From: an uncultured Candidatus Bathyarchaeia archaeon
GTDB lineage: Archaea > Thermoproteota > Bathyarchaeia > TCS64 > B23
Assembly: GCA_964525955.1 (NCBI GenBank)
Contig: CAZGKJ010000001.1
Coordinates: forward strand, 4,069-68,068
Direction: 5' to 3'
DNA: 64,000 nt
Made by a program: the position numbers and the translations under genes
Notes under the pieces: generated by a model
Databases searched by the model: none
Told to the model about the DNA's origin: nothing
The model's input: only the letters and a program-made list of their open reading frames with translations
In this document: in pieces, positions 28,463 through 64,000 of the stretch
How positions within the stretch are numbered: position 1 is the first letter of the stretch
Layout of the letters: each line of letters opens with the position of its first letter

Positions 28463-28787
28463 TCTGCTCTCTAATCAATTAAGTTTGACGATAACCTCTC
28501 CAGTTGAGTATGAAGGGGTGGGGTCTCCATCACATCGCCCTGCATAGGCGTGGGATTTAGGGTGACGCTCTGGAAATAACTTTAAGTGTGAAGCTATACT
28601 TCTAGGCACCCACTCCCCTTAATTAGGAGCTGTTGTGAAACGCTTCTAAAAATGGTTGATATGCGAACTCTTAACGAGTTATTCTGGCCCTTTCCGTTCT
28701 GAATCTGACCAACTGGACTAATTCGTGGTAGAGGTTTTTAATGTCACTTGGATTTAACCCTAGAGGTTGAAGTATGTATTTCTCCAT

Positions 28788-31658: not shown

Positions 31659-31753
31659 TCATTAACTAAATACAACTTATAAACTAATCCAAATCGCCCT
31701 CCCTTGCTAAGGGTGTAAAGCCTAGCCTAAATAGAGGGAAAATTCTGGGGCCT

Positions 31754-43576: not shown

Positions 43577-43622
43577 CCGCCCCTGATAGCTTTTAGAATA
43601 GTTGGGGAGACTTTTATTTAAC

Positions 43623-45572: not shown

Positions 45573-45899
45573 ATGGGTTTGGAGCTATCGACGGCGGAGG
45601 CCCTCCTAGAGGATCGCCCCCTCAAGGCCGCCCTACTGGAGTTGGGGAACGCAGTCATCGCCCTCTTCTGGCTTGGAGATGAGCCGAGGCTGGGAACGCT
45701 CACCATCTCCATGCCTGGAGGCGTCTCATCACCCCTCCTCGGCGATCGAGACCGAGTTCTCAGTCAGGTCATCGCTGAGCGCCTCGCCCACCTCTATGGG
45801 AAGATGGCCCTCGTCTCCATAAATCTCCCCCCAGACCTCGAGGTCTCCGCCGGTAGGGTGCTGCTTAAGCTGGTTGGGGAGCTGGTGAGGGAGCGTTGA
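45573..45899 (+). CDS. Hypothetical protein (108 aa), first gene of the mevalonate-pathway operon
   Basis: ORF whose stop overlaps the UbiD-like start; no motif was recognised. Confidence 0.3.
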   Translation: MGLELSTAEALLEDRPLKAALLELGNAVIALFWLGDEPRLGTLTISMPGGVSSPLLGDRDRVLSQVIAERLAHLYGKMALVSINLPPDLEVSAGRVLLKLVGELVRER

Positions 45900-47239: not shown

Positions 47240-48420
47240 CCCGACTTGAGGAGGAGATGCTTGAAGGCGAGATGGGGGAGGCCGTGGCGAGGGCCATGAG
47301 CCTCCTCGTCGCCCTCGGGGAGGTCTTCGAGGCTGAGAGGCTAATCGAAGTGGAGAGCGCCCACATCTCAGGAGTCTCCTATAAGAATCTCGGCGAAGCT
47401 GGATTGGAGTATCTCGAGGAGCAGGCTGAGCTGGGGGCCCATGTGCGTATAAGGGCGACGCTCAACCCAGCTGGAATGGACTTGGAGCGGTGGGGGGAGA
47501 TGGGTGTCTCCCCTGAATTCGCTGAGGGTCAGCTTAGGGTGATCGAGGCCTATAGGCGTATGGGCGTTGAGGCCACCTGCACCTGTACACCCTATCTCAT
47601 AGGTCATAGGCCGAGGGCTGGAAGCCAGGTCGCCTGGGCTGAGTCCTCAGCCGTCGCCTACGCCAACTCCGTTCTCGGCGCCAGAACTAATAGGGAGACT
47701 GGGCCTACAGCCCTCGCCTCAGCTATCACGGGTAGGGCTCCTCTACACGGATATCGATTGGAGGAGAATAGGAGGCCGAGCATCATCATCGATGTGAAGG
47801 CCCACCTCAGCTCCAAATTCGATTATGGAGCCCTCGGCTACCTCATCGGAGAGATCGCAGGTCGAAGCGTCCCCTACATCAGGGGTTTGAGGGGTGCAAG
47901 CATAGAGCAGCTTAAAGCCCTCTCAGCGGCCATAGCCACCTCAGGTGGTGTGGCCCTCTACCACATCGAGGGCTTAACCCCCGAGGCCAGGAGGATGACT
48001 CGACACCTTGGGGATTTGGAGCATATACCAATAAAGCCCGACGGCCTGAGGGAGGTGGCTGAACGCTTCCAGGGGGCTGGGGAGGAGGCCATAATCTGCG
48101 TCGGCTGCCCCCACTGCAGCCTCAGGGAGCTGATGGAGGTCGCCATGCTGCTGGAGCGTCGAAGCTGTGAGAGGTTATGGGTCTTCACAAGCAGGGATGT
48201 CTACATGAAGGCTGAGCGGCTGGGCATAGTCAGGGCCATCGAGGAGGCTGGGGGCAGGGTCTACCGGGATACCTGCATGGTGGTTGCGCCTCTTAGGGAG
48301 ATGGGGTGGAGGGAGGTGGCGACGAACAGCTTTAAGGCGGCCCACTACCTCTCCTCCATGGGCCTCACGGTTCAGGTTGCGCCTCTAAGGGAGCTTCTGG
48401 GGAGGGGTCATGAGGATTAG
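47230..48420 (+). CDS. Aconitase X catalytic (large) subunit, probable phosphomevalonate dehydratase large subunit
   Basis: AcnX/DUF521-like sequence ('...AHISGVSYKNLGEAGLEYLEE...CTCTPYL...'). Confidence 0.65.
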   Translation: MYLTRLEEEMLEGEMGEAVARAMSLLVALGEVFEAERLIEVESAHISGVSYKNLGEAGLEYLEEQAELGAHVRIRATLNPAGMDLERWGEMGVSPEFAEGQLRVIEAYRRMGVEATCTCTPYLIGHRPRAGSQVAWAESSAVAYANSVLGARTNRETGPTALASAITGRAPLHGYRLEENRRPSIIIDVKAHLSSKFDYGALGYLIGEIAGRSVPYIRGLRGASIEQLKALSAAIATSGGVALYHIEGLTPEARRMTRHLGDLEHIPIKPDGLREVAERFQGAGEEAIICVGCPHCSLRELMEVAMLLERRSCERLWVFTSRDVYMKAERLGIVRAIEEAGGRVYRDTCMVVAPLREMGWREVATNSFKAAHYLSSMGLTVQVAPLRELLGRGHED

Positions 48421-51140: not shown

Positions 51141-52307
51141 TTAGGCCTTAAGGGCCTTCACGTAGTCCTCTATCCTATTGGCCGCCTCCTCCAACACCTC
51201 TATCGGCTTGACGAGGGGTATTCGGACATGCCCCTCACCGTGGGGGCCGAAGGCGGCTCCTGGGACTATGGCCACCCTCTTCTTCTCCATCAAGTCCTCG
51301 CAGAACTTGAAGCTGGACTTTGAGACCTCTGAGATGTCTGGGAAGAGGTAGAAGGCCCCCTCAGGCTTTGGGCAGTTGATTCCCTCTATCTCGTTTAGGC
51401 GTTTAACGAGATACTCCCTCCGCCTATTATACTCCTCAGCCATCTTCTCTATCGGCTCCCATGGCCCAGTTAGGGCTGCCACCCCTGCGACCTGGACGTG
51501 GGCCGCTGGGCATAGAACCATGTTTCCCTGTATCTTCAGCATCTGCTCTACGAGGCCTCCAGGGGCGATGAGGTAGCCGAGCCTCCAACCCGTCATGGCG
51601 AAGGTCTTTGAGAAGCTTACAACCACGACCGTCCTCTCCTTCATCCCAGGTATGGAGGCTATGCTCACAAATCTTCGACCATCCCAGATGAATTCGCTGT
51701 ATATCTCATCTGAGATGATGAGGAGGTCATGCTCCTCGGCTAGGTCTGCCACCCCTTTAAGCTCCTCCTCCGTGAAGACCGTCCCCGTCGGGTTGTTTGG
51801 GGAGCAGAGGATGATTATCTTCGTCTTATCCGTTATCCTGGCCTTAATCTCCTCGAGGTCGAGGTGGAAGCCCTCCGCCTTGAGGGGGAATCTCACCGGC
51901 TTTCCACCAAGGAATCTCACCGTTGGGACGTAAATCAGATAGCTTGGATCGGGGATGAGAGCCTCATCTCCAGGCTCAACGGTGGAGGCGAGGGTGAGAT
52001 ACAGCGCCTGCTGGCTTCCAGGGGTGACTATAACCTCCCTCTCCGGATCGACCTCTACGCTGAACTTCTTATAGTAGGCCGCTATGGCCTCCCTGAGTTG
52101 GGGTATGCCCTGAGTCGGCGTGTAGTGGGTCATCCCCTCCCTCAGAGCCTTGACGGCCGCCTCGACGATGTGGCTGGGCGTCGGGAAGTCTGGGTCTCCA
52201 CCTGCGAGGACGACGACATCCTTCAGCATCATGAGGGCCGCTGCAAGCCTCCTAATCAGCGATGGCTCCATCTCCCTTAGAACCTTCACCGCCCACCGCT
52301 CACTCAT
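51141..52307 (-). CDS. Class I/II PLP-dependent aminotransferase (aspartate aminotransferase-like)
   Basis: '...CSPNNPTG...' and 'SFSKTFAMTGWRLGY', the PLP-lysine motif region. Confidence 0.8.
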   Translation of the reverse strand: MSERWAVKVLREMEPSLIRRLAAALMMLKDVVVLAGGDPDFPTPSHIVEAAVKALREGMTHYTPTQGIPQLREAIAAYYKKFSVEVDPEREVIVTPGSQQALYLTLASTVEPGDEALIPDPSYLIYVPTVRFLGGKPVRFPLKAEGFHLDLEEIKARITDKTKIIILCSPNNPTGTVFTEEELKGVADLAEEHDLLIISDEIYSEFIWDGRRFVSIASIPGMKERTVVVVSFSKTFAMTGWRLGYLIAPGGLVEQMLKIQGNMVLCPAAHVQVAGVAALTGPWEPIEKMAEEYNRRREYLVKRLNEIEGINCPKPEGAFYLFPDISEVSKSSFKFCEDLMEKKRVAIVPGAAFGPHGEGHVRIPLVKPIEVLEEAANRIEDYVKALKA

Positions 52308-52340: not shown

Positions 52341-53216
52341 TTAAAGCTGTCGAGTTCTACTCCTCCAGAGGCTTAGCCTCCTCTCAGCCTCTGCTCTATG
52401 CTCCCTTATGAGGTTTGGAAGCCTCCTCACCAGGTTGAGGTTCTCCTCCAACCTCCCCCGGTATAGCTCACCGAGCCTTGGGTGGAGCTCCTCCAGCAGC
52501 CTGAGGCATCTCCGACCCATGGAGACGGCCTCCGGGCAGCTTGGGCTGCAGGGGAAGAAGTAGGAGACGAAGTAGGCCATGGCATTCGCTTCGCCCTCCT
52601 CCAGCTGTCTATAGGCTCTCTCCTCAACCTCTAAGCCCATGGATCTCTCCCTGGCGTATCGCTCCACGCAGCATTGAGGGTATCCGAGGAGTCTCCCCAT
52701 CTCAGCAACCCAATCGGCCTCAAGCTCCTCTGGATATGCCAGATATATGCCGAGGCCTCTCGGCCTCTTCATGGCCTCTCTCCTCAGCCTCTCCCTCCTA
52801 TCCATAAGCCTCCTCAGCCTCTTCTCGACGCCTCTCTCCCTGTATAGGTAGAGCTCCCTAACCGTCGGCCTCACCTCGTCTACCCGCCATCTGAGGCCGA
52901 GGCGCTCAGCCCATCCTATATGGGCCTTATACTCCTCCGAGGCCTCAACAACCTCTCTGTATGCCCTCCGCATGGCCCTCTTCACATCCCTGATGGCTCC
53001 TCTATCACCCCTCCTAATCCTTAGGAGGGTTGGATAGATCCTCTCGTCGATTATTCTCCCCATCTCCCCTCCGCTTGGGAGCTCGGCGGGTATGGTTATC
53101 TGGGAGCAGGGTCTGACGCCGAGGTAGACGAGTAGATAGTCCTCCAGCTTCACGCCGAGCCTCAGCCTACCGTCTTCGAGGAGCTCCTCCACGTCTCCCT
53201 CATCTAATCTCTTCAC
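52341..53216 (-). CDS. DUF483-family protein
   Basis: Conserved 'GYPQCCVERY' plus additional Cys ('FFPCSPSCPEA'). Confidence 0.4.
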   Translation of the reverse strand: MKRLDEGDVEELLEDGRLRLGVKLEDYLLVYLGVRPCSQITIPAELPSGGEMGRIIDERIYPTLLRIRRGDRGAIRDVKRAMRRAYREVVEASEEYKAHIGWAERLGLRWRVDEVRPTVRELYLYRERGVEKRLRRLMDRRERLRREAMKRPRGLGIYLAYPEELEADWVAEMGRLLGYPQCCVERYARERSMGLEVEERAYRQLEEGEANAMAYFVSYFFPCSPSCPEAVSMGRRCLRLLEELHPRLGELYRGRLEENLNLVRRLPNLIREHRAEAERRLSLWRSRTRQL

Positions 53217-53279: not shown

Positions 53280-53930
53280 TTACATGGGTGCTATCTTCAG
53301 GACTTGGAGGAAGAACTGCGCCCTGCCGGAGAGCATCGCCATCCTGAAGAGGACGGTGTTGCCGAAGTATGCTCCAAGGCCGATCATGATGATCCAGCGT
53401 CCAAGCCTCGTCGCATAGCCCATTCCACCCCTATGCTCCCATGTCAGGACGAAGTACATGACGGCGCAGATGGTTCCTATCGCTATGTAGATGTAGTTCC
53501 ACCAGTCAACAGCCCCCGCCCCAGTGGCCGGCGGGGTGATCGTCGAGATCACCTGGTTTGTGATGTTGGGTATGAGGACTCCCCTCATACCGAGTCCGAA
53601 GCCGGCTCCTACGAGGATGGCGATTGGATATCGGCTTATCCACCTATACTTCGGCGTCAATAGGAAGAACATCATGAAGCCGAGGATGATGGGTATGACG
53701 TACCAGACCTTCCCCTGCATTAGAGGCGGCCCAACCATCCTTATCGTCGTCGTAATCGTCGTCCTCACGAGCATGATGGCCAGCATCAATCCGACGTAGG
53801 TGTGCTCCGCGAACCTGAAGGCAGGATTCTCCTTATACAGCGGGTAGCTGTAGATCATCAGCATCAGCAGCCATGCAATCCACAGGCCAGCGATTCCAGC
53901 TGGATCGGTTGGGTAGGGCATCCACCTCAC
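53280..53930 (-). CDS. Uncharacterized polytopic membrane protein, cassette A subunit 4/4 (paralog of 61190..61816)
   Basis: About 6 hydrophobic helices. The motifs 'FRFAEHTY', 'PKYRWISRYPIAILVGAGFGLGMRG' and 'GRWIIM...YFGNT' are shared with the cassette-B protein. Its stop overlaps the upstream gene. Confidence 0.5.
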   Translation of the reverse strand: MRWMPYPTDPAGIAGLWIAWLLMLMIYSYPLYKENPAFRFAEHTYVGLMLAIMLVRTTITTTIRMVGPPLMQGKVWYVIPIILGFMMFFLLTPKYRWISRYPIAILVGAGFGLGMRGVLIPNITNQVISTITPPATGAGAVDWWNYIYIAIGTICAVMYFVLTWEHRGGMGYATRLGRWIIMIGLGAYFGNTVLFRMAMLSGRAQFFLQVLKIAPM

Positions 53931-54766
53931 CTCCTCCTACCCCTGCTGGCGAAGTAGCCGATGTTCGCCAGCACTACGGCTATGATGACGAGGATGTGGG
54001 AGATGTTTATGGCTCCCATCCTGATGGTTGCCTCACCAGGCTCTCCGATGAGCTTCTCCAATTCAGCTCCTCCCCTGACTCCGACGCTCATACCGAAGAG
54101 GACTCCGGACTTGTAGAAGGGCATGTAGCTGGAGCCCAGCATCGCGATCCCTATCTCGGCGACGGGTACACCATAGGGGATGCGCCACTGCCTGATGTAG
54201 TAGTCGCAGACGTCGCCGGTGTCTCCGGAGAGAACCAGCTTGATATCCGTCGCCTTGTCGACGTTCTTCATCATCGGAATCTCGTCGAGGGGCGTCCCAT
54301 AGTTATCCGTCTCGAATATGCTTCTAATCGAGGAGGCGAGCTGGGCTACGGCCGCCTCCTGGTAGGGGTAGTATCCAAGGTAGACGTAGTCCTCTCCATA
54401 CTTTAGGTCCTTGAAGTAGTCCTCGCACCTCCTCAGAACCTCCTCATAGCTCAGGTCGACGTCGTAGTAGGCTCCCCAGAAGATGATCTTGGCGCCCTCC
54501 TTTATCAGGAGCTTTGTGCAGGCGGCGAAGGCTGGCATACACTCAGGCCAGGCGCTCACTCCGAAGGCTATATTCATCACGACTACGTCTCCAGGCTCCA
54601 CCATCTCTATTATGCCCTCATAGAGGTCTCTGGTGGATGGGCTGATGCTGATGGGGAACATGATGGGCCTGATGAAGGGTATCATGAGGCCGATGAACAG
54701 TATCCAGTAGAAGACTCGGCGATCAATCCTCGCCAGCTTCTCCCAGAAGGTGAGCTCCTCACTCAT
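53927..54766 (-). CDS. Uncharacterized bitopic membrane protein (N- and C-terminal TM, central soluble domain), cassette A subunit 3/4 (paralog of 61813..62655)
   Basis: Hydrophobic N-terminus 'VFYWILFIGLMIPFI' and C-terminus 'ILVIIAVVLANIGYF'. The central domain aligns along its length with the cassette-B protein. Confidence 0.5.
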   Translation of the reverse strand: MSEELTFWEKLARIDRRVFYWILFIGLMIPFIRPIMFPISISPSTRDLYEGIIEMVEPGDVVVMNIAFGVSAWPECMPAFAACTKLLIKEGAKIIFWGAYYDVDLSYEEVLRRCEDYFKDLKYGEDYVYLGYYPYQEAAVAQLASSIRSIFETDNYGTPLDEIPMMKNVDKATDIKLVLSGDTGDVCDYYIRQWRIPYGVPVAEIGIAMLGSSYMPFYKSGVLFGMSVGVRGGAELEKLIGEPGEATIRMGAINISHILVIIAVVLANIGYFASRGRRR

Positions 54767-55425
54767 TCACCAGCCACCTCCCCATAGAATCCTCTCTCCC
54801 TGCCCAGCAGCGCCCTGAATCCGTAGGCGAGCATGCCGAAGGCTGCGACGATTAGGAAGCATCTCATCCCAGGCACCTGACCATAGTCGAGGAACCATCG
54901 CCCTATCACCGGTATGCCGCTCCAGATGACTCCCCCTATCGGGGCGTTGGTTAGGATGACGAAGCAGCCTGCGATGAGCAGCAGGGCCGCATCTATGTTC
55001 CTCGCCCTGAAGGCCCTGTAGGCGGCTGAGAAGATGTAGAATCCCGTGATGGCGTATAGAGTTTGGCCCAGGCTTGTGTAAGGCCACGTGAAGAGCCAGT
55101 TGTAGAGGAGGTTAGTCATGGCATCCTGCTTTGTGACATAGCCCGCGAGGCCACTGAAGAGAGTGATGAGGAAGATGATCCATAGCCAGATACTGAAGGG
55201 CCATAGTCCAGCCCTCCTCTTCTGGATGTTCTTGGCATGCTCAGACAGCAGCCTTATGGCTCCCAATGCGATGGAGATGTTCGCGATGATGGTGGCCCAG
55301 GTTCGAAGCTCCTCAGCGACGTTCCAGGTGCCTATGAAGAAGAACTCTATGAACATCAGTATGGTGACTATGGCGGTTATGAGGTAGACAACCTCCCTCC
55401 TCAAAACCTCAGCCATATTCACCAC
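54763..55425 (-). CDS. Uncharacterized polytopic membrane protein, cassette A subunit 2/4 (paralog of 62658..63293)
   Basis: About 6 hydrophobic helices. 'AYRAFRARNIDAALLL' is matched by 'AYKALRIRNIDSLFLF' in cassette B. Confidence 0.5.
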   Translation of the reverse strand: MVNMAEVLRREVVYLITAIVTILMFIEFFFIGTWNVAEELRTWATIIANISIALGAIRLLSEHAKNIQKRRAGLWPFSIWLWIIFLITLFSGLAGYVTKQDAMTNLLYNWLFTWPYTSLGQTLYAITGFYIFSAAYRAFRARNIDAALLLIAGCFVILTNAPIGGVIWSGIPVIGRWFLDYGQVPGMRCFLIVAAFGMLAYGFRALLGRERGFYGEVAGE

Positions 55426-56231
55426 CTCAAAACGTTTATCAGCGCTGGATTCCTGGCGAAGCCGAGTATGAAGCCGATGATCATCAAGGCGATCAATATG
55501 AACTTCATTATGTCCTCACCTCTAAGGCAGCCGAGGATGTCTGGATCCTTGCTGATGGAGGCTCCGGCGGCGTATAGCTCCTCGGCCAGCAGGACGTAGT
55601 CGCAGGTGGCGACGAGGAAGGGCATCTGGTGGGTGTTGGCGGTTCCACCGATCTGGAAGGCTCCGATGGTGTTGCCGCCCTCACCCATTACGACGGACTC
55701 GTAGTAGAAGCCTCCTATCAGGAAGTTTGTTGCAGGCCTCTCCCTCTGGAAGTAGCCGAGGACGGCCGTCAGGTATGGTGACTGACCGGCGATGAAGTGT
55801 ATCATGTCTGGGGAGAACTCCTCAGGCTTCCCCTCAGCCATGTAGGCTGTTCGGAGAGTCTCCTCTGTGAGGGGGAGCGCCGTCGGGATGGGCATGAAGA
55901 CGTCGAGCTTCACACCCGTCCTGGCGCACTCCCTCGCTATGTAGCCGAGGATGCTTATAGCAGCCAGAACCTGTGGACCCTGCGTGGGGTCGTTCAGGTC
56001 TCCGGCGATGCCGGGTGTGAACATCACCGGCCTACCCATCTCAGCGGCCCTGCCGATCCCCTCAGGTATGGCGGCCATGGGTGGAAGCGTTCTGACCGGG
56101 ATCTCCCTTCCCTTCCTGCCGAGATACATGAATATGTAGAAGAGGATGTAGGAGAGCACCAGTATTACGAGGGCCATCCCTCTCCCTGAGACGATGATGG
56201 CCATATCCTCTTCCTCCCTTTTCCCCACCAT
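55419..56231 (-). CDS. Uncharacterized bitopic membrane protein, cassette A subunit 1/4 (paralog of 63303..>64000)
   Basis: N-terminal TM, then a soluble domain ('...GRAAEMGRPVMFTPGIAG...IGGTANTHQMPFLVATCDYVLLAEE...'), then a C-terminal TM. It aligns with the cassette-B protein ('GRAVEMGRPVFDIIGMG...IGGTARLYQIPFFAAVCDYVLIGEE'). Confidence 0.5.
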   Translation of the reverse strand: MVGKREEEDMAIIVSGRGMALVILVLSYILFYIFMYLGRKGREIPVRTLPPMAAIPEGIGRAAEMGRPVMFTPGIAGDLNDPTQGPQVLAAISILGYIARECARTGVKLDVFMPIPTALPLTEETLRTAYMAEGKPEEFSPDMIHFIAGQSPYLTAVLGYFQRERPATNFLIGGFYYESVVMGEGGNTIGAFQIGGTANTHQMPFLVATCDYVLLAEELYAAGASISKDPDILGCLRGEDIMKFILIALMIIGFILGFARNPALINVLRW

Positions 56232-56339
56232 CCAGAGCCTTTAGACCCTGGACAGCTAATAGAGATGAATAATTCATTTTATATAAGTTTTCATGGGTCC
56301 CTCTTCACTTATAAAATCAAGTTAATAATGAGGGGATAG

Positions 56340-57497
56340 TCACTCCTCGATGATCTCAACATTCGCCCTCGGCACCGTAACTATTCTGCCATCCTCAAGT
56401 TCGACCTCTAAGACCCTCACGTAGGATTCGGTCTCCACCTGCTGCAGGTCTATCGGCAGGCTGTGCACTCGGCCTATAGCTCCGAAGTAGGGAGCCCTGA
56501 TGATGCGTACAGGGGTTCCAGGAACCATTCCAGCCGCCAACTCGTCGCCGCTCTTCTCCTCGTAGAACTCGCTGTGGGGTATGATGACCTCAGGCCTCAT
56601 GACGCCGGCCCTGATCTGGGTGGCGCCGTTTGCTGCTGCCTTATAGCCGTCGAAGCTCTTGAAGAGGTTAAAGGCCCTACGGCTCATGCGTAGCCTGCCG
56701 AAGCCCTCGGTGATGATGAGCGTGAGCCCCACCTCCTCATGTCCCGTGATGGCGACTCCGATCTCCTCCCCCATGAACTCCGTTAGGTCTCTATGCCTAA
56801 TGCCTCCGGCGACGATGCAGGAGACTCCAACCTCCACACCCTTCCTCAGGGCGTCGAGGGTGACGAGGGAGCCCCCTACGAGGATCGCCCCCTTGTCATC
56901 ATCCGATATATGGTCTGCGGTGAGCTCCTCATCAGGTGAGTCGACGGCCATCTTTATGACTCCATGGGTCTCGCCGCCGATGCCGAAGATTCCCTGCACG
57001 AAGGCTGCGTTCGTCTCTATGACCGCACCCTCATTTGGGAGCACCTCGACGACCTTTCCAGGTATATAGGCATCGACCTCCAGGGGGACTGGAGGCTTCC
57101 TTATGACCACCTGACCCGTGATGTCGGAGATGGACTCTATGACTCCGTCGACTGGTGAGACGACGTCTCGCTTTATGAGGCCGAAGAAGGCTCTGTAGTG
57201 GGCGATTATATCCCCCTCCTTCACCTCATCCCCCACCTTCTTCATCATGTATCTCGGCACATCCTCGGGTTCGATGCCGAGTAGTAGTGCGACCTTGACG
57301 ATCTCGGGTTCACCGGCCAGCTCCGTTCTCGCTACGATTGTTTTGAAGTCTACCTCATCCCCCTCCTCGACGAGGACCTTTCCAGGTATTGGAAGCCTCC
57401 TCATCTTCCTGACGAGCATCGCCCTCTTAACCTTCAGACCTGGGGTGTAGGCGTATGCCTCCCTTGAAACCCTCCTCTTCCCCTTGGCCTTAGGCAT
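56340..57497 (-). CDS. Uncharacterized 385-aa soluble protein with repeated beta-rich (barrel-sandwich/biotinyl-lipoyl-like) segments
   Basis: Patterns such as 'KVGDEVKEGDIIA' and 'VDGVIESISDITGQVV' are repeated. No catalytic motif was recognised. Its start abuts the ASKHA ATPase gene's stop (1-nt gap). Confidence 0.35.
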   Translation of the reverse strand: MPKAKGKRRVSREAYAYTPGLKVKRAMLVRKMRRLPIPGKVLVEEGDEVDFKTIVARTELAGEPEIVKVALLLGIEPEDVPRYMMKKVGDEVKEGDIIAHYRAFFGLIKRDVVSPVDGVIESISDITGQVVIRKPPVPLEVDAYIPGKVVEVLPNEGAVIETNAAFVQGIFGIGGETHGVIKMAVDSPDEELTADHISDDDKGAILVGGSLVTLDALRKGVEVGVSCIVAGGIRHRDLTEFMGEEIGVAITGHEEVGLTLIITEGFGRLRMSRRAFNLFKSFDGYKAAANGATQIRAGVMRPEVIIPHSEFYEEKSGDELAAGMVPGTPVRIIRAPYFGAIGRVHSLPIDLQQVETESYVRVLEVELEDGRIVTVPRANVEIIEE

Positions 57498-57498
57498 C

Positions 57499-59334
57499 TC
57501 ACACCAACTCCCTCAGCTTATCCTCCGGGTACATATCGATGTCGAGGAACCATTTAAGCAGAGTCTCCCTCCGCTCTTTATCGTTCTCCGGAAGCTGTAG
57601 GGGTCTACCCCTTGCGTCGAGGAGTATGCCTACGACGCCTCCCATGGCTGTTCCCTCCACCCTCTTTCCAGGCCCCCTCCCAACGTCGAAGCCCCTCCTC
57701 GGCGATATGGTCACCTTCGCCTCCTCCCTCTCCGGCAGCTCTATACGCTTAATCTCTCCGAAGTGCATCTCCTCCGTCAGGGTCTCCCCATTCGGCATCT
57801 CGATCTCAACCGTCATGACTGGGTCACCCTTATTCGCAACGCCTCTCGGCGCGATGACTGTTCCAAGTCTGACGAGGCAGTCCTTGTCGAAGATCTGCCA
57901 GGCCGCCTCCCAGTATACGGTTGATAGGACTCCGAGGTGGGGCATCATGAAGACGCTGTCCTGGAACATCCATGTTATGCCCTCAGGTTGGAAGGCGTCT
58001 GTGAGGATGAGCATCGACTGGACTCTGCGTGGGGCGTGGCTCAGCAGTCCTCCGGTTCCGGCGATTATGTCGATCTTCATGAGGTCTATGTAGGTCTCGG
58101 CCAGCGCCTGCTCGAACATGTCGCTTATCGTCCTCTCTATCTTTGCGCCCTTCAGCCTCGTCGCTATGGTCTTGTGATGCTCCAATCCGAGTCTCAGGGC
58201 TTCACGGGCGACGGAGTGCTCGACGATGAGGTCGTCGAGGGTCTGTGGGATGGTTGTCGGCCTAATCATCTTATTCATCAGTCTGCTCGCCACCTCCTCC
58301 TCATCCATTTCGAAGGGGAGCCATCGCATTATGTTCTCGATGCCAGCCGTCTTCATCACGTTGCAGATGCTGTAGCTCATACCCAGGTTGGCGCTTACGC
58401 TCCTGACGAACTTGCCCTCGAAGACGGAGTAGACATTCGTCGTAGCCCCTCCGAGGCCGACGCCGAGGACGTTCTTCTCGAAGACCTTGGCGATGAGCTG
58501 CATCGCCATCCCCTCACCGGCTGGCGTAGGCATTATGTCGATGTCAGTCCACTTCATCAGCTTCAGATAGCCAGGTGCATGGCTCATCACGTGCTCCATG
58601 AAGAGCTCATGGATCGCCCTACGGGCGGGCTCAGTGTTCTCCACCTCTAGGACTGGTCTGATGTTGTCGACGATGGTGAGCGCGAATACTTCGCCGAGCA
58701 GCTTCTTTATCTGAGGCCTCAGATCCCTGTTTCCGGCGTAGACTATTGGGAGCTTATAGCCGAGGCCGAGCCTGGGCTTAGGCTCAGCCGCCTTTAGCAT
58801 CTCGGCGATCTCCATCACGTGGGTTGTGGCTCCCCCATCGGTTCCTCCGGCGAGTAGGATCATGTCGGGTCTGAGGCTTCTAATCCTCTGAATCTTCTTG
58901 TAGACCGGTCTCCCATCGTCTTGGGCGATGACGTCCATAACTATGGCTCCTGCTCCGAGGGCAGCCCTGTTGGCGCTCTCAGCCGTCATGGTCTTTATGA
59001 GGCCTGCCACCATCATCTGTAGGCCTCCACCAGCGCTGCTGGTTGTGCAGTATAGGTCGACGCCTCTCTCACCGTCGAAGGGGACGACTATGCCGCTTCC
59101 ATCCTCAGCCAGTATCTTATGTCCCGTGAGCTCCTCCACCTCCCTGACGGCGTTCCTGACGCCGAGGGTGACATCCTCATAGGGGGCCTCAACCGTCGTG
59201 GGTGCTTCACCTGCTATGACGAATCTCCATCCCTCCGGCTTGCGCTCGAAGAATCTCGCCTTAGTTGTGGTGCTGCCTACATCTGTGGCGAGGATATACT
59301 TCATCTCCTCCTTCGGCTTCCTAAGCCTCGCCAT
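57499..59334 (-). CDS. MutL/EutA-like ASKHA-superfamily ATPase (611 aa)
   Basis: The N-terminal 'ILATDVGSTTTKARF' matches the glutamate-mutase MutL / EutA-reactivase / BadF-BcrA-type phosphate-1 motif. The length is consistent with a duplicated actin-like fold. Confidence 0.55.
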   Translation of the reverse strand: MARLRKPKEEMKYILATDVGSTTTKARFFERKPEGWRFVIAGEAPTTVEAPYEDVTLGVRNAVREVEELTGHKILAEDGSGIVVPFDGERGVDLYCTTSSAGGGLQMMVAGLIKTMTAESANRAALGAGAIVMDVIAQDDGRPVYKKIQRIRSLRPDMILLAGGTDGGATTHVMEIAEMLKAAEPKPRLGLGYKLPIVYAGNRDLRPQIKKLLGEVFALTIVDNIRPVLEVENTEPARRAIHELFMEHVMSHAPGYLKLMKWTDIDIMPTPAGEGMAMQLIAKVFEKNVLGVGLGGATTNVYSVFEGKFVRSVSANLGMSYSICNVMKTAGIENIMRWLPFEMDEEEVASRLMNKMIRPTTIPQTLDDLIVEHSVAREALRLGLEHHKTIATRLKGAKIERTISDMFEQALAETYIDLMKIDIIAGTGGLLSHAPRRVQSMLILTDAFQPEGITWMFQDSVFMMPHLGVLSTVYWEAAWQIFDKDCLVRLGTVIAPRGVANKGDPVMTVEIEMPNGETLTEEMHFGEIKRIELPEREEAKVTISPRRGFDVGRGPGKRVEGTAMGGVVGILLDARGRPLQLPENDKERRETLLKWFLDIDMYPEDKLRELV

Positions 59335-59394: not shown

Positions 59395-60735
59395 ATGGGC
59401 GTAGAGGAGCTCTGGAGATTTAAGGCTCCGAGGATAGTTGTGGAGCCTCCAGGCCCCAGGGTGAGGGAGATACTCAAGGCCGTCGGTCTCCCACCCTCAG
59501 CCTATAGGCATCCCCTCGTCGAGGAGGCTGGAGGCGTCTGGATCAGGGATCCGGATGGAAATGTCTTCCTCGACTTCATCTCAAGCCGATGCGTCGTCAA
59601 CGTCGGCCATAGGCATCCGAGGGTGCTGGAGGCCATCGGACGTCAGATGGAGGCGGCAACCCATGGCTGGGTGGAGGCGAGGCATAGGCTGGATAGGGAG
59701 CTGGCGAGGATCACCCCAGGCAGCTTTGAGAAGAGAGTCTACTACGCCCTAACTGGCTCCGCCGCTAATGACTGCGCCCTCAAGCTTGCGAGGTGGGCGA
59801 CGGGTCGGCCCTACATCATCGCCTTCGCAGGAGCCTTCCACGGCATGACCTATGGAGCCCTCAGCCTAAGCTCCTATAAGACCTGGATGATCAGGGGCTT
59901 CGGCCCAAATCTCCCAGGCGTCTATCACATGCCCTATCCCAACTGCTATAGATGCCCCTTTGGCCTTCAATATCCAGACTGCGATCTAAGATGCCTCCAC
60001 TACATAGAGGACTACGCCTTCAAGAGCTATCTCCCACCAGATGAGGTGGCAGCAGTCTTCATAGAGCCGATAGCTGGAGACGCCGGCTGGATCGTCCCAC
60101 CGGAGGGCTATCTACAGGGCCTGAAGGAGCTCTGTGAGAGGTATGGAATCCTCCTCGTCGATGAGGAGGTTCAGACTGGCTTCGGCAGGACTGGACGATG
60201 GTTCGCCTGCGAGCATTGGAGTGTGGAGCCCGACATCATCATCCTGGGTAAAGCCCTTGGAGGTGGTGTTCCCCTAAGCGCCGTCGTCGCCAGGGCGGAG
60301 CTCCATATCCATGGCGGAGAGCATTTCAGGCATGGCCACACCTTCGATGCCTTCCCCCTCGGCTGTGCGGCCGCCCTGGCCAACATCGAGGTGATAGAGG
60401 AGGAGGGCCTCATCGAGAGGGCTGAGAGGCTTGGAGCCTATCTCATGGATAGGCTTAGGGAGATGATGGGGAGGCATAGCATCGTCGGCGATGTGAGGGG
60501 TAGGGGACTCCTCATCGGCGTTGAGATCGTCGGCGATAAGGCCTCCAAGAGGCCTGATGCCGAGGCCGCTGACCGGATATGCGTCGAGGCCTTCAAGAGG
60601 GGTCTATACATCATAAGGATGGGCTCCTTTGGAACAGGCGTTCTCAGGGTGGCTCCGCCGCTGGTCATAACGAGGGAGCAGCTCGATGAGGCCCTCAGAA
60701 TCCTCGACGAGTCTATAGGGGCGGTGGAGGCTTAG
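59395..60735 (+). CDS. Class III PLP-dependent aminotransferase (GABA/acetylornithine aminotransferase family)
   Basis: '...YALTGSAANDCALKLAR...' and 'LLVDEEVQTGFGRTGRWFA', with '...IIILGKALGGG' as the PLP-lysine region. Confidence 0.8.
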   Translation: MGVEELWRFKAPRIVVEPPGPRVREILKAVGLPPSAYRHPLVEEAGGVWIRDPDGNVFLDFISSRCVVNVGHRHPRVLEAIGRQMEAATHGWVEARHRLDRELARITPGSFEKRVYYALTGSAANDCALKLARWATGRPYIIAFAGAFHGMTYGALSLSSYKTWMIRGFGPNLPGVYHMPYPNCYRCPFGLQYPDCDLRCLHYIEDYAFKSYLPPDEVAAVFIEPIAGDAGWIVPPEGYLQGLKELCERYGILLVDEEVQTGFGRTGRWFACEHWSVEPDIIILGKALGGGVPLSAVVARAELHIHGGEHFRHGHTFDAFPLGCAAALANIEVIEEEGLIERAERLGAYLMDRLREMMGRHSIVGDVRGRGLLIGVEIVGDKASKRPDAEAADRICVEAFKRGLYIIRMGSFGTGVLRVAPPLVITREQLDEALRILDESIGAVEA

Positions 60736-61112
60736 AGGAAGGGGATTAGACGCCTCCAACCCTTCTTTTTCCCAGCTTCTCCAGATTGGGTGGTCTCCTC
60801 AGTCTCCGCCGCCTCAACCTCCTCCGCCGACATCTCCTCGAGGATCGTTATTAGACGCTCTATGTTCTCCCTCTTCTCGAATATCCTGAAGAACTTCTCC
60901 CCGCTTATGCTGATCTCCTCTCCGAGGGCTGGTAGGAATGGTGAGATGAAGAACTTTCCGAGCTCCCCTCCAATATATACGAGGGGTTTGAAGCTCTCGA
61001 GGAACAGTATGGCTGCAGCGTCCATCCCATATTTATGGATGACGCTCGCCACCTTTCTGATAACCCTCTCCTCCTCCTCGGGGGTGATCTCGAGTCGATC
61101 CCACCAGAACAA
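60732..61112 (-). CDS. Hypothetical protein (126 aa, acidic C-terminal tail)
   Basis: ORF only. It has its own TATA-like element (TTATAAAG, read on the minus strand) ~61125-61135. Confidence 0.3.
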   Translation of the reverse strand: MFWWDRLEITPEEEERVIRKVASVIHKYGMDAAAILFLESFKPLVYIGGELGKFFISPFLPALGEEISISGEKFFRIFEKRENIERLITILEEMSAEEVEAAETEETTQSGEAGKKKGWRRLIPFL

Positions 61113-61189: not shown

Positions 61190-61816
61190 TTAGTGGATGA
61201 TTCCCAGCCAGTCCCTCAGCAGGAATATGATTCTCCCCTGATACATCGAGAACCTCGTCATTATCGTGTTTCCGAAGGCTCCTCCGAAGGCGGCGAGCAT
61301 CATCCATCTCCCTATCTTCGGAATCCAGCCTGCAGCCCCCTTGTGTATCCCCTCGTATGTGAAGATGAAGTGCGTTAGAGCCGTGACTGTTCCAACGAAG
61401 ACTATTATGTTGTTGAGTGTTCCGAGGGGCGTCGTCGCTATTAGGGGCTTGGCCGTAGCTGCGATCTGCTTGATGAAGTCTGCGTGGATGGCTCCCCTAA
61501 TCGATATGCCGACTCCTATCCCGACGAGGAAGGCGATGGGGTAGCGGTATATCCAGTAGTATTTGGGGTGATATCTGGTGTAGATGAGGATGCCGAGGAT
61601 TATCGGAATCCAGTAGCTCGGCTCCCCACCGGCTATATGAGTCCATCCATATAGGATGACGTTCTTAACACCCATCACTATGGCGTGGCCGGCCGCTGCT
61701 CCTATGAAGGTGTACTCGGCGAATCTGAAGAATATGTTGTCCCTGAAGGCGTAGCTTGTCGCCACTATTGTGAAGAAGGCTGCGATCCAGACGCCAACAT
61801 CCGTTGAGACCATCAC
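61190..61816 (-). CDS. Uncharacterized polytopic membrane protein, cassette B subunit 4/4 (paralog of 53280..53930)
   Basis: Shares 'FRFAEYTF', 'PKYYWIYRYPIAFLVGIGVGISIRG' and 'GRWMML...AFGNT' with its cassette-A partner. Confidence 0.5.
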   Translation of the reverse strand: MMVSTDVGVWIAAFFTIVATSYAFRDNIFFRFAEYTFIGAAAGHAIVMGVKNVILYGWTHIAGGEPSYWIPIILGILIYTRYHPKYYWIYRYPIAFLVGIGVGISIRGAIHADFIKQIAATAKPLIATTPLGTLNNIIVFVGTVTALTHFIFTYEGIHKGAAGWIPKIGRWMMLAAFGGAFGNTIMTRFSMYQGRIIFLLRDWLGIIH

Positions 61817-62655
61817 TTCTCACCCTCCCTCTTAGATAATCTGGAGCCCCAGTAGGAGATGTTGCCGATGATGATGAAGATGAGGACGATGGTTTGAGTT
61901 GCGCTCAGGATGTCCGTCGCCCTCATGGCGTCCCCTGGGTGGTGGGTCATATACTCCATGTCCGCAGCCCCCTTGATGCCGTCGAGGATGCCCTTGAGGG
62001 CTCCGGCGTCGTAGTATGGCTTTAGGGATGGGGTCATCATGCTTAGGAATCCGCCGACGACTGGGAGCTTGTATCGGCTGTAGGCCTGGTAGACCCATCC
62101 CTCGGCTATCCCCCCGCTCGTCGTTAAGTAGGCCACCAGGGCGAAGCTCTCCGGGCCGGTTATCTCCTGGAGTAGCGGTATCTGCTCGATGGATGTTCCA
62201 TAGTAGTCCTCCTTCACCGCCGTGTGTATGTCGCCGAGGACGGCTGCCATAGCCGTCTGCTCCCCGGCTATGTATCCGAGGAATACATAGTCCCTCCCAT
62301 ACTCTGCTCCATAGTTCTTCTCAGGCTTCACCTTCTCCATGATCAATGGATACATCATCGATCCCTCCAGCGCCGTCGCCATGATGACGATCTTCAGATG
62401 CTTCTCGAACATCTGGTGGAGGGCTGCGATGGCGCATGGGCCGAGGGTTGGATAGCCCCCTGAGCCGAATCCTATGTCGAAGAGGACTATTGAGCCCTCT
62501 GGTAGGGAGTCGACGGTGTTATACCAGTCCTTAGACATCTTCCCAACCATTATTGGCAGTCCGAAGGGTCTGATCGCTGGAACTATCATCGCTATCAGAA
62601 CGATCGTCAGAACTATCTCCCTTGGGATAGCCGCTAACTTCTCCCACATGGACAT
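61813..62655 (-). CDS. Uncharacterized bitopic membrane protein, cassette B subunit 3/4 (paralog of 53927..54766)
   Basis: Same N-TM / soluble / C-TM architecture as its cassette-A partner, and it aligns along its full length. Confidence 0.5.
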   Translation of the reverse strand: MSMWEKLAAIPREIVLTIVLIAMIVPAIRPFGLPIMVGKMSKDWYNTVDSLPEGSIVLFDIGFGSGGYPTLGPCAIAALHQMFEKHLKIVIMATALEGSMMYPLIMEKVKPEKNYGAEYGRDYVFLGYIAGEQTAMAAVLGDIHTAVKEDYYGTSIEQIPLLQEITGPESFALVAYLTTSGGIAEGWVYQAYSRYKLPVVGGFLSMMTPSLKPYYDAGALKGILDGIKGAADMEYMTHHPGDAMRATDILSATQTIVLIFIIIGNISYWGSRLSKREGEK

Positions 62656-62657
62656 CT

Positions 62658-63293
62658 CTACGCCCTCCCCAAATATCCCCTCTCCAATCCCAGGATGGTT
62701 CTGATGCCTAGAACTACTGCGCCTATGCCGACTCCGATCCTTATGCCCCTATAGGCTCCGCTTATAATCGTCTTGAATATCCACTCCCTGGTGTAGAAGA
62801 ATCCTGGGAGGGCGGCTGGGAACATCGGGGTGTTTCCGAGGACGACGAAGATGGCTGTTAGGAATAGGAATAGGGAGTCGATGTTCCTTATCCTCAAGGC
62901 CTTGTAGGCTCCTATAGCCATGTAGAAGCATAGGGATGAATACATCGTTGCGCCGAGGGGTAGCATTATGGCGTTGTATATCCACTTATACTGCCAGCTT
63001 GCATCGAACTTCCCAGTTGATAGGCCGACTACGACGAATACTATCAGCATGAATAGGAGCCATCCACTTAGGGGCCATAGCTCCCCCCTCTCAGCTATAC
63101 GCTTCCCATGAACTCTGAATAGGTTGACGGCTCCAACTCCCAGGGCGAAGGCGGTGACGACGATCCCCCAATTCTTCAGAACCGTGAATGTCCCCCTTAT
63201 GGCTGGGACGGTTGTGTAGAAGTCGAGCACCGCTATCACGCCAACTATGAAGGTTATTAGAAGGGGGATATACTTCCTAACAACCTCCGACAT
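62658..63293 (-). CDS. Uncharacterized polytopic membrane protein, cassette B subunit 2/4 (paralog of 54763..55425)
   Basis: Hydrophobic profile and shared motifs with its cassette-A partner. Confidence 0.5.
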   Translation of the reverse strand: MSEVVRKYIPLLITFIVGVIAVLDFYTTVPAIRGTFTVLKNWGIVVTAFALGVGAVNLFRVHGKRIAERGELWPLSGWLLFMLIVFVVVGLSTGKFDASWQYKWIYNAIMLPLGATMYSSLCFYMAIGAYKALRIRNIDSLFLFLTAIFVVLGNTPMFPAALPGFFYTREWIFKTIISGAYRGIRIGVGIGAVVLGIRTILGLERGYLGRA

Positions 63294-63302
63294 ATTCCCA
63301 CC

Positions 63303-64000
63303 TCATATACTCATAAGCTGTGAGACCCATGGGAGACCTGCCGTAGCCAGTATCGCGCCGATGACCCCGAGGATGATGGCGGCTATCTTATACCAGTCCT
63401 GGCAGGCTATTGAACCTGTTTGGAGGGGGTCTCCAGATAGGTAGGCTCCAGCTGCGAATGTCTCCTCACCTATTAGGACGTAGTCGCAGACGGCTGCGAA
63501 GAAGGGTATCTGATATAGCCTCGCCGTCCCCCCGATCTCTAAGGCCCCCAATCTATCGAAGGTCTCGGCGAACATCATTGACTCAGCCCAGAAGGGGCCG
63601 ACCATTATCACGGAGGCGGGCTTCAGCCTCGAAGCCATGCCGAGTATTCCGCTGGCCCAGGCGAATTGGGTTCCTGAGAGGTAGGGGAGCTGCTCATCCA
63701 CATTTAGCTCCTCTATCTTACCCTCAGCTAGGTATCCCTCCCTAACCATCTCTATGGCCACGGGCATCACGTCGACCGATGCCTGTGGGGCGTATAGCTT
63801 CGCCCCAAGCCTTGCACATAGGTGGGCGACGTAGTTTAGAACCGATAGTCCAGCGACTGTTTGGGTTGCATATATGTCGGTGAATGTCCCCATCCCTATT
63901 ATGTCGAATACGGGCCTCCCCATCTCAACGGCTCTTCCAACCGCCTCCTCCATGGCGTCTAAGGCTGGCAGCCGCCTGATCCTCACCTTACCCCTCTTCC
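63303..64000 (-). CDS. Uncharacterized bitopic membrane protein, cassette B subunit 1/4 (paralog of 55419..56231); N-terminus lies beyond the window end
   Basis: The reading frame stays open to position 64000 ('...KRGKGVRIRRLPALD...'). It aligns with the cassette-A protein starting from that protein's residue ~45, so about 40+ residues and any upstream genes are outside the window. Confidence 0.5.
   Translation of the reverse strand, partial: KRGKVRIRRLPALDAMEEAVGRAVEMGRPVFDIIGMGTFTDIYATQTVAGLSVLNYVAHLCARLGAKLYAPQASVDVMPVAIEMVREGYLAEGKIEELNVDEQLPYLSGTQFAWASGILGMASRLKPASVIMVGPFWAESMMFAETFDRLGALEIGGTARLYQIPFFAAVCDYVLIGEETFAAGAYLSGDPLQTGSIACQDWYKIAAIILGVIGAILATAGLPWVSQLMSI

Follow-up and report, generated by a model that had tools for sequence, protein, structure and literature searches.

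The gene cluster and its flanking genes

Six ORFs, designated A to F, lie on the minus strand of the window (the whole stretch of 64 000 nucleotides that was analysed), and the ORF listing places them exactly where the original prediction had them: A at 57499..59334 (611 aa), B at 56340..57497 (385 aa), C at 55419..56231 (270 aa), D at 54763..55425 (220 aa), E at 53927..54766 (279 aa) and F at 53280..53930 (216 aa). The A stop and the B start are 1 nt apart, and the predicted stop/start overlaps at 55425/55419, 54766/54763 and 53930/53927 are present, amounting to 7 nt for C/D and 4 nt for both D/E and E/F. Between B and C there is an intergenic gap of 108 nt, in which a TATA-like element, TTATATAAAA (56277..56286, minus strand), was read from the sequence. 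By inference only, this element is a possible internal promoter for C–F, in which case A–B and C–F may be two transcripts. Homologues of each of the six genes are recognisable at the protein level in dozens of independent loci, where gene order is conserved, and an independent gene caller yields the same calls in a relative that is 82 % identical (L169); we are therefore highly confident that A–F are real genes in a conserved cluster and did not arise by chance. The true start of C is probably Met10 (window position 56204), as its equivalent is the start both in homologues and in the L169 gene call, and a GGAGG lies 8 nt upstream of it; homologues of D start at the equivalent of Met4.

The original prediction missed further parts of the locus. 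The first, X126 (60732..61112, minus strand), encodes a 126-aa protein with a conserved hydrophobic hairpin (ILFLESxKPL...SPFLP) and no Pfam match. Its homologues form an A-type and a C-type clade. In genome loci they adjoin A on its upstream side in 14 cases and C in 20; in metagenome loci 39 of 74 are upstream of A and 8 are between B and C. Because these homologues adjoin A or C, we regard X126 as part of the system and as its leader gene. The second, Y291 (52341..53216, minus strand), encodes a Cys-rich DUF483 protein (PF04467, E=2e-9); in nearly all Bathyarchaeia loci the gene immediately downstream of F encodes a protein of this type, and such a gene follows F in 36 archaeal loci and in no bacterial locus. 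The third is a paralogous set of membrane genes, also on the minus strand and taken from the ORF listing, comprising F2 (61190–61816), E2 (61813–62655), D2 (62658–63293) and C2 (63303 to beyond the window end at 64000), whose products are 28–39 % identical to C, D, E and F. This double-set layout was also seen in L001, L004, L005, L016 and L169.

Predicted properties of the encoded proteins

The A gene product is an actin-fold ASKHA ATPase of the Pfam MutL/GlmL family (PF13941, E=4e-119, residues 14–486), and the MutL/EutA-type DVGSTTTK motif noted in the original prediction was located at residues 18–25. Its C-terminus bears an additional domain of about 125 aa. The ASKHA motifs ATDvGSTTTKA, AGGTDGG, GGATTN and GTGGLLSHAPRR are all invariant in archaeal and bacterial A homologues (53–57 % identity between A and the latter), which argues that A is competent as an ATPase. 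A search of the PDB found neither sequence relatives of A nor a solved structure for any PF13941 member. The B protein had been described as soluble and beta-rich, and this was upheld by the lack of TM segments in hydropathy analysis and by a good AF2 model that is mostly beta and shows three domains: a barrel-sandwich hybrid at the N-terminus, a swivelling beta/beta/alpha domain in the centre and a KOW/SH3-like domain at the C-terminus.

Hydropathy analysis likewise bore out the proposed alternation of bitopic and polytopic membrane proteins, with two TM segments in each of C and E, one per end, and about five in each of D and F, which are taken to have about five to six. The distribution of K/R residues is consistent with the predicted orientations. 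C is predicted to have an external N-terminus, a TM segment, a cytoplasmic Rossmann/USP-like domain of ~200 aa, a second TM segment and an external C-terminus; some of its relatives have extracellular-type domains fused outside both TM segments, and one has a signal peptide and an exported domain ahead of TM1. The predicted topology of E is an internal N-terminus, a TM segment, an extracytoplasmic alpha/beta domain of ~210 aa, a TM segment and an internal C-terminus, with a conserved DRR ahead of TM1 and a K/R-rich tail after the last TM segment; its profile similarity to C is weak (hhalign probability 21 %). Conserved motifs were found in D, which is encoded between C and E in every case (F(Y/F)IxSAAYRAFRARNxDA and a C-terminal R..LG.ERG), and in F (KENxxxRxAEH, SRxP and GRxxxMxxFGAxFGxTVxxRxSxLxGR).

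The sole Pfam match among C–F is that of C to DUF6754 (PF20539), which is full-length (E=3e-71). No Pfam family was found for D, E or F, even when 75 diverse members were scanned, and no NCBIfam family for D; nor were PDB sequence relatives or solved structures found for the membrane proteins. Judged by sequence, D, E and F thus represent families uncharacterised so far, and C belongs to a family that has a name only. As the original prediction had maintained, none of C–F matched the Rnf/Nqr, Mrp, ECF, Oad or ABC families, and a motif scan of A–F found no Walker A, ABC signature, SGAT or biotinyl MKM motif. In neither sequence nor fold does any subunit resemble known transporters, channels or pumps, and the system matched neither defence-system models nor known respiratory families.

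Gene order and neighbourhood in other genomes

The genes C–D–E–F occur together and in unchanged order in all 72 C-anchored loci, which represent Bathyarchaeia, Methanomethylicia and at least eight bacterial groups. In the C-anchored genomes, A–B lie within 10 kb of C–F in 13 of 23 Bathyarchaeia loci and near C–F in just one of nine bacterial loci. The A-anchored metagenome loci, which by A identity make up at least five mutually divergent groups of bacterial type (GC 32–67 %), have B after A in 43 of 60 cases and C–D–E–F after A–B in 22 of 37. The pairing of ATPase and membrane genes, loss of which elsewhere would have told against the original prediction, is therefore retained, and the linkage of A–B with C–F was additionally seen in Bathyarchaeia and in an Armatimonadia MAG. 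In about half of the loci with A–B–C–F, B and C overlap or are ≤5 nt apart. The arrangements observed were X–A–B–C–D–E–F, A–B–X–C–D–E–F, C–D–E–F–A–B (L081) and, in the Armatimonadia locus L065, C–F followed by two genes and then A–B. That linkage is kept while gene order varies argues for function and not for inherited synteny.

The cluster is therefore conserved, but the proposed six-gene operon is not an obligatory block, as C–D–E–F occur without A–B and B occurs without partners in Armatimonadota and Fervidibacter. The occurrence of C–F alone in many bacteria and archaea indicates a self-sufficient module: the core is C–F with or without X126, and A–B are a frequent accessory.

Possible functions and comparison with known systems

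What the locus encodes is a membrane-associated system that is conserved and has not been described so far; its novelty had been proposed in the original prediction, and the literature searched contained no mention of DUF6754 or its companion families, whether of function, structure or any paper. Its function is unknown. Our best guess, a tentative one held with less than even confidence, is that C–F with A–B constitute a multi-subunit transporter or translocase of a new kind, in which the cytoplasmic module depends on ATP. It is likely that C–F form one complex, although we have no model of a complex and physical interaction is untested. That such a complex functions in transport or translocation is inferred, not shown, and falls only a little short of an even chance; that A–B physically dock on it, similarly an inference, is possible but the most doubtful of these proposals.

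Under this working hypothesis, a four-subunit integral membrane complex, usually with X126 alongside, would be the core of a translocation pathway of a new type, for solutes or polymers. The outward alpha/beta domain of E would bind substrate, D and F would form the route across, their conserved E/R/N residues perhaps coupling to ions, and the cytoplasmic domain of C may serve as a docking or regulatory site. The A–B module, which in Bathyarchaeia and a number of bacterial lineages is joined to this core and is frequently coupled to it translationally, might use ATP to drive the core, might use it to gate the core, or might act on imported substrate at once, like glycerol kinase behind GlpF. 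ATP cannot be the obligatory energy source, since most C-anchored bacterial loci have C–F without A–B. The transporter reading is supported by the transporter-like slot that C–F occupy in catabolic operons: in L074 they follow GntR/UTRA and precede an M24 prolidase and an ornithine cyclodeaminase, in L059 and L087 Amidohydro_3 follows F, in L081 the surroundings are M20, M28 and amidohydrolase genes, and in Eisenbacteria a sigma-54 activator lies upstream. Two bacterial groups, however, have phospholipid-synthesis genes and RlpA as neighbours, and other loci have glycosyltransferase or plain housekeeping neighbours, so that contexts are inconsistent. This inconsistency, the lack of transporter likeness, the solitary B genes, the 17 of 60 A-like genes with other neighbours and the B–C gap with its TATA-like element are all observations that run against a transporter-plus-ATPase view.

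In an alternative explanation, which we consider unlikely though the strongest of the rivals, the two modules share a pathway without contact. Here, C–F would be a secondary, ion-coupled uptake transporter and A–B a soluble enzyme that depends on ATP and has its relatives in the hydantoinase/oxoprolinase ASKHA branch; its substrates would be peptides, cyclic amides or other nitrogen compounds brought in by the transporter, and the modules would be adjacent only through serving one catabolic route. In Bathyarchaeia, A–B and C–F are indeed often 0.3–8.5 kb apart, with M14 carboxypeptidase and SIMPL protein genes among those intervening; creatininase-family, Amidohydro_1/3, M20, M28 and class-III aminotransferase genes recur nearby, and many genomes have C–F without A–B. 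Bacterial clusters, however, often couple B and C translationally and have neighbours that are not catabolic, and paralogous X126 proteins are found at the head of both modules. The evidence from B itself is divided: its conservation is extreme and its invariant motifs are enzyme-like, yet the alignment of homologues contains no invariant His, Cys or Lys, and no known catalytic family was matched.

Slightly less probable still is a cell-envelope or membrane-biogenesis machine, in which C–F would translocate or organise lipids, lipid-linked intermediates or surface polymers, with A and B as a cytoplasmic scaffold or motor in the manner of MreB–MreCD or PilM–PilNO. Neighbouring genes lend this some support: one bacterial group has CdsA, RlpA and the lipid kinase YegS/DAGK immediately upstream, and another has PlsY, CDP-alcohol phosphatidyltransferase and a KpsF-like isomerase upstream, but these two groups are of related contigs, so the association may be inherited synteny, and archaeal loci have no such lipid-gene neighbours. 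GT1, GT2 and GT4 glycosyltransferases and an NTP-transferase also adjoin C–F in Armatimonadia, Eisenbacteria and Zixibacteria-like loci, and exported domains of the kinds that characterise surface proteins (propeller, FN3, PKD and Ig) occur in fusion with DUF6754 proteins. No homology to MreC/D or PilN/O emerged, and polymerisation is not a known property of the MutL/GlmL family.

A further reading, to which the original prediction's remark on MutL/EutA-type reactivases leads, is very improbable: that A serves a radical or B12 enzyme as reactivase or chaperone, that B contributes a DdrA-like swivelling domain in trans, and that the membrane genes merely happen to lie nearby. The scores of A are far under the equivalog cutoffs (218 against 475 for GlmL, 214 against 600 for Or-4), the conserved partner of A–B is C–F, and the analysis found no evidence for such a client: genes for B12-binding proteins, mutases, EAL or glycyl-radical enzymes are absent from the annotated neighbours (window, L081–L088 and L169). 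An ion pump of a divergent Rnf/Nqr-like or decarboxylase type, in which B would be an NqrA/RnfC-like peripheral subunit, is close to refuted, as the likeness is confined to the common barrel-sandwich hybrid fold, FMN, Fe–S and biotin motifs and conserved Cys clusters are lacking, and C–F matched no Rnf, Nqr, Oad or Mrp subunit.

Comparison with known systems places A closest to GlmL/MutL of glutamate mutase and Or-4 of ornithine degradation, with which it shares PF13941 end to end as well as the ASKHA motifs, among them DxGSTxxK (phosphate-1). It differs in being about 150 aa longer, with its C-terminal domain, in scoring well below the NCBIfam GlmL, Or-4 and glmL_fam cutoffs and in adjoining no mutase, being paired instead with B and the membrane genes. 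In contrast to the diol and glycerol dehydratase reactivases DdrAB/GdrAB, to which no sequence homology was found, the swivelling domain is here on a separate protein together with a barrel-sandwich hybrid and KOW domain, and no B12 enzyme client is nearby. B also differs from NqrA/RnfC of Na+-NQR and Rnf in the remainder of the protein and in lacking cofactor motifs, with membrane partners unrelated to NqrB–E or RnfADEG, and from the phosphohistidine swivel domains (PTS Enzyme I, PPDK, rifampin phosphotransferase) and RraA-like proteins in lacking the phosphorylatable His, no His of B being invariant at all. C and C2 (E=3e-68) are full-length members of DUF6754, whose constant partners D, E and F are outside Pfam. 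GlpF–GlpK pairs a membrane facilitator with an ASKHA kinase, and in PilM–PilN/O and MreB–MreC/D an actin-like ATPase docks on bitopic membrane proteins. No homology was found between their membrane partners or ATPase subfamilies and the proteins described here, and the likeness is one of functional analogy only: in each case an actin-fold ATPase is encoded with a small membrane complex, on which it presumably acts.

Gene order around the locus

All six open reading frames of the original prediction, which had described an unrecognised operon joining a MutL/EutA-like ATPase to membrane subunits, lie on the minus strand where it had placed them: A, an ASKHA ATPase (59334-57499, 611 aa), B, a soluble protein (57497-56340, 385 aa), C, a bitopic DUF6754 protein (56231-55419, 270 aa), D, a polytopic membrane protein (55425-54763, 220 aa), E, a further bitopic protein (54766-53927, 279 aa), and F, again polytopic (53930-53280, 216 aa). 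The stop codon of A and the start of B are 1 nt apart, and the overlaps at C/D, D/E and E/F are 7, 4 and 4 nt, respectively. In homologues, C starts at the equivalent of Met10 (window position 56204, with GGAGG upstream), as it also does in the independent gene call from L169, an 82 %-identical relative, and D starts at the equivalent of Met4. B and C are separated by 108 nt, and this gap contains a TATA-like element, TTATATAAAA (56286-56277, minus strand), so that A-B and C-F are perhaps separate transcripts in this member of the Bathyarchaeia; an internal promoter for C-F may lie at this element, as an inference only. This arrangement differs from that of many bacterial clusters, where B and C overlap.

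The wider minus-strand layout is C2-D2-E2-F2, X126, a divergent class-III aminotransferase, A-B, C-D-E-F and a DUF483 protein, and independent gene calls in L169 give the same layout. The C2-D2-E2-F2 genes (61190-64000, minus strand) are a paralogous second set with 28-39 % identity to the first, cut by the end of the window, and it is this second set (D2, F2) to which the bacterial D and F proteins are nearer. X126 (60732-61112, minus strand) encodes a 126-aa hydrophobic hairpin protein without a Pfam family. Between it and A, the plus-strand aminotransferase gene (59395-60735) recurs in L001, L003, L041 and L169, L001 (Candidatus Bathyarchaeota MAG AUK253) being the closest locus, with a 97 % identical C and an identical gene order. 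Directly downstream of F lies the gene for the Cys-rich DUF483 protein (52341-53216, minus strand), which recurs at this 3' position in 36 Bathyarchaeia loci but in none of the bacterial ones, and which is followed by a class I/II aminotransferase gene (51141-52307, minus strand).

Elsewhere in the window, GC falls to 43-44 %, against about 57 %, in an island at approximately 28000-32000, where a minus-strand ORF of 956 aa (28788-31658) combines N6_Mtase with Eco57I methylase domains and probably encodes a restriction-modification enzyme gained by horizontal transfer. An STT3/AglB oligosaccharyltransferase homologue of 721 aa is encoded at 41585-43750 (minus strand). A UbiD-family decarboxylase gene followed by one for Aconitase X (45896-48420, plus strand) is syntenic in L169; the archaeal modified mevalonate pathway typically includes this pair.

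Linkage of A-B to the membrane gene set

Conservation of the cluster was assessed in two sets of loci, one anchored on C (80 genome loci, with the presence of A-B scored within 10 kb where the flank sufficed) and one anchored on A (80 metagenome loci that share 54-69 % identity with a bacterial A). In the C-anchored set, C-D-E-F were always together and in constant order, an order kept in Bathyarchaeia, Methanomethylicia, Eisenbacteria, Armatimonadota, Bacillota, Zixibacteria, Ignavibacteriales and others. A-B lay within 10 kb in 13 of the 23 Bathyarchaeia loci with enough flank, at distances of 116 bp to 8.5 kb, and in only one of nine bacterial loci, a result that, taken alone, would indicate a loose, lineage-specific neighbourhood. 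Our initial leaning, on the strength of those nine loci, was towards chance juxtaposition of A-B and C-F, and this was overturned by the A-anchored scan. Here, B followed A in 43 of the 60 loci with room, and C(-D-E-F) followed A-B in 22 of 37, with B and C overlapping or no more than 5 nt apart in about half; the other 17 of the 60 A-like genes had unrelated neighbours. Judged by the identity of A, the full clusters form five or more groups; they range from 32 to 67 % GC and carry C proteins of bacterial type.

The linkage of A-B and C-F persists across differing arrangements, which include X126-A-B-C-D-E-F, A-B-X126-C-D-E-F, C-D-E-F-A-B (L081) and, in the Armatimonadia locus L065, C-F followed, two genes on, by A-B. 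X126 heads A-B in 14 cases and C-F in 20, and is often itself preceded by a gene for a 154-aa protein; its family, with archaeal and bacterial members aligning over a conserved hydrophobic hairpin, divides into two paralogous clades, an A-type and a C-type. The proposed six-gene unit stands in so far as the linkage of A-B to C-F recurs in the A-anchored loci, without being an invariable block, as A-B are often absent beside C-F. The self-sufficient core is C-F, with or without X126, and A-B are a frequent accessory, often translationally coupled to it.

Features of the encoded proteins

A matches the Pfam MutL/GlmL family (PF13941) over residues 14-486 with 398.8 bits (cutoff 27; E=4e-119) and, judged by sequence, is a full-length, divergent member of it, carrying an additional C-terminal domain of about 125 aa. 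It falls below the NF040745 GlmL equivalog cutoff (218.3 against 475 bits) and under other NCBIfam cutoffs (Or-4, 214 against 600; glmL_fam, 154 against 204). The DVGSTTTK motif noted in the original prediction is present at residues 18-25 and, together with AGGTDGG, GGATTN and GTGGLLSHAP, does not vary among 11-16 homologues from archaea and bacteria, whose identity between the two domains is 51-57 %. With its phosphate-1, phosphate-2 and adenosine motifs conserved, A qualifies as an ASKHA protein, ATP hydrolysis itself being inferred. No MutL/GlmL-family member was found in the PDB by sequence with A as query.

The family of B is very large (at least 8000 and 7036 word-limited matches) and extremely conserved, with invariant QGIFGIGGE, IGVAITGxE, TEGFG, GATQIRAGVxRPE and VPRANVE motifs. 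Hydropathy gives no transmembrane segment, and a Biotin_lipoyl match is below cutoff. The central domain is a swivelling beta/beta/alpha domain with its best likeness to RraA (8.8), followed by the mobile domains of rifampin phosphotransferase, PTS Enzyme I and Bacillus stearothermophilus pyruvate kinase (8.0-8.7), the AcnX small subunit (7.9) and the diol dehydratase reactivase DdrA (7.0), and the C-terminal domain is a KOW/SH3 barrel (Spt5, NusG and eL27, about 7.5); no full-length match was found to any compared structure. B also occurs alone, without A or C-F, in three Armatimonadota/Fervidibacter-type loci (L084, L085 and L086; B at 10001-11143), in the first of which a methyltransferase gene lies directly upstream, and the relative P0442 carries a fused SAM methyltransferase.

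The transmembrane segments counted by hydropathy, one at each end of C and E and about five each in D and F, agree with the alternation of bitopic and polytopic subunits that had been predicted. C matches DUF6754 (PF20539) with 239.9 bits (E=3e-71) and C2 with 230 bits (cutoff 27), both over their full length, and the profile retrieves 2317 clusters from 1.84 billion representatives. In many DUF6754 proteins, PQQ-propeller, FN3, PKD or Ig domains precede the first transmembrane segment or follow the last; long exported extensions occur in P0146, P0184, P0239, P0220, P0225, P0268 and L107:13038-14315, and in the bacterial C of L107 a Sec signal peptide and an exported FN3-like domain lie ahead of TM1. 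From these flanking exported domains, the signal peptide and a K/R cluster after TM1, we infer that the termini of C are outside and its conserved domain of ~200 aa is cytoplasmic. An AF2 model (pLDDT 73) gives this protein a Rossmann-like alpha/beta domain; residues 176-212 are its most conserved stretch, yet the sole disordered part of the model. From a conserved DRR ahead of TM1 and a K/R tail behind the last transmembrane segment, the alpha/beta domain of E is inferred to face outwards, in a topology opposite to that of C.

D and F have distinctive conserved motifs, and D, E, F, X126 and the 154-aa protein have no Pfam match, even in a scan of 75 diverse members; B, D, E, F and X126 have no curated family. 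PDB searches for A, B, C and E, whether by single sequence or by profile, returned nothing significant. The four membrane proteins show no detectable relatedness to one another, and pairwise comparison by hhalign of C, D, E, F, X126, the DUF483 protein (Y291) and B revealed no internal duplication, C and E pairing at only 21 % probability. Walker A, LSGGQ, SGAT and biotinyl MKM motifs are absent from all proteins, as had been claimed for Walker and FMN motifs, and the membrane subunits remain as unmappable as first described, since only DUF6754 was matched, by C, and no known transporter or respiratory family.

Possible function and relation to known systems

Anatomy, topology and conserved linkage are established, function being inferred. 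The best-supported reading, every functional step of which is inferred, is that C-F with A-B would form a machine of several subunits for translocation, of a new kind. In it, E may bind through its outward domain, D and F may form the path, and the inward domain of C, Rossmann-like and perhaps akin to the HUP-class nucleotide-binding domains of universal stress proteins (USP), may be a docking or regulatory site, while A-B, as an ATP-dependent module, would drive or gate the core or at once process what enters. The stronger proposal regards X126-A-B-C-D-E-F, which is conserved in both Bathyarchaeia and several bacterial phyla, as a membrane transporter or translocase of a new class, with a core outside known superfamilies, powered or gated by an ASKHA ATPase through a swivelling-domain adaptor; it is advanced only tentatively, and we consider it unlikely as it stands.

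A possibility that deserves slightly more credence, if still a doubtful one, is that the modules are coupled only at pathway level, as a secondary transporter and a soluble ATP-dependent enzyme; the frequent absence of A-B beside C-F has to be set beside the near or overlapping B and C genes. Gene neighbourhoods diverge in direction, being catabolic or uptake-like on one side and envelope- or lipid-related on the other. Bathyarchaeia loci are surrounded by M20, M28, amidohydrolase, creatininase and M14 peptidase genes, of which the creatininase-family, amidohydrolase and M20 genes recur near loci related to that of the window. Amidohydro_3 follows F in L059 and L087, and in a Eubacteriales MAG the order is GntR/UTRA, C-F, M24 prolidase/creatinase and ornithine cyclodeaminase; Eisenbacteria have a sigma-54/GAF activator upstream. 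In one bacterial group (L125, L133, L137, L146 and L168), genes for RlpA-DPBB, a YegS/DAGK lipid kinase and CdsA lie just before A; another has PlsY, CDP-alcohol phosphatidyltransferase and KpsF-like genes upstream and, in L107, L111, L112, L113 and L142, a 426-aa Memo-like protein directly after F. Glycosyltransferases neighbour C-F elsewhere. The actin-fold protein might instead scaffold a machine for envelope or lipid biogenesis, a reading that is in our view improbable, at about the level of the ASKHA-powered class.

That A-B are a reactivase of a B12 or radical enzyme, at which the original prediction hinted, we judge very improbable: A fails the GlmL equivalog tests, and no client enzyme lies nearby. 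As the methylaspartate mutase accessory protein, GlmL would be expected beside or between the glutamate mutase subunit genes glmS and glmE, and A is not so placed; no mutase or B12-binding protein lies beside it, its neighbours being aminotransferases, DUF483, membrane genes, an HD protein and AcnX/UbiD, and no cognate B12 or radical enzyme, as expected of DdrAB, GdrAB or EutA, was found within ~10 kb in the window, L081-L088 or L169. An Rnf/Nqr-like or decarboxylase pump is the least credible reading, as the only shared feature is the common barrel-sandwich hybrid fold.

Comparison with individual families was equally negative. C, D, E, F and 75 diverse relatives have no Pfam or NCBIfam match to RnfA/D/E/G or NqrB-E, and B does not meet the full domain set and cofactor motifs required of an RnfC/NqrA-type peripheral subunit; a redox complex is unlikely, given the lack of conserved Cys or His clusters and of cofactor motifs. 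An ABC or ECF identity was rejected for want of Walker A, LSGGQ or family matches, and an Oad/Gcd/Mmd identity because B lacks biotinyl MKM and a Biotin_lipoyl match above cutoff and no OadB-like match was found. B also lacks the phosphorylatable His of GGxT(S/C)H, which rules out a PEP-utilising or PTS phosphocarrier, and a PADLOC-DB 2.0 scan of eight proteins gave only a non-significant AbiEi match (E=0.0086, 0 stretches). Across all components, Pfam, NCBIfam and PADLOC scans yielded matches to MutL and DUF6754 alone, and to no known transporter, respiratory complex, secretion or defence system.

Operons that are conserved but lack a known function are common enough; what distinguishes this one is its large orphan families, its presence in both prokaryotic domains and its pairing of an actin-fold ATPase with a membrane complex. 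It unites D, E, F, X126 and the 154-aa leader, none with a Pfam entry, with DUF6754 (>2300 clusters) and B (>7000 homologues) in one recurrent cluster, common to Bathyarchaeia, an abundant uncultured archaeal class, and several bacterial lineages, and its definition provides a first testable context for these families and a second, non-B12 context for the biochemically obscure GlmL/MutL ATPases. Were the modules linked only at pathway level, the C-F complex would still be a new transporter architecture, one that could bear on the uptake of peptides or other substrates by sediment archaea. As a system, the cluster appears to be new, having no described counterpart as a whole in Pfam, NCBIfam, PADLOC, the PDB or the searchable literature, a view that a known transporter fold in D or F would qualify. 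Should A couple to the membrane core, it would represent a new way to energise or regulate membrane transport, and a machine powered or gated by an ASKHA ATPase would use an energy coupling distinct from that of ABC, P-type, V/F-type and AAA+ motors.
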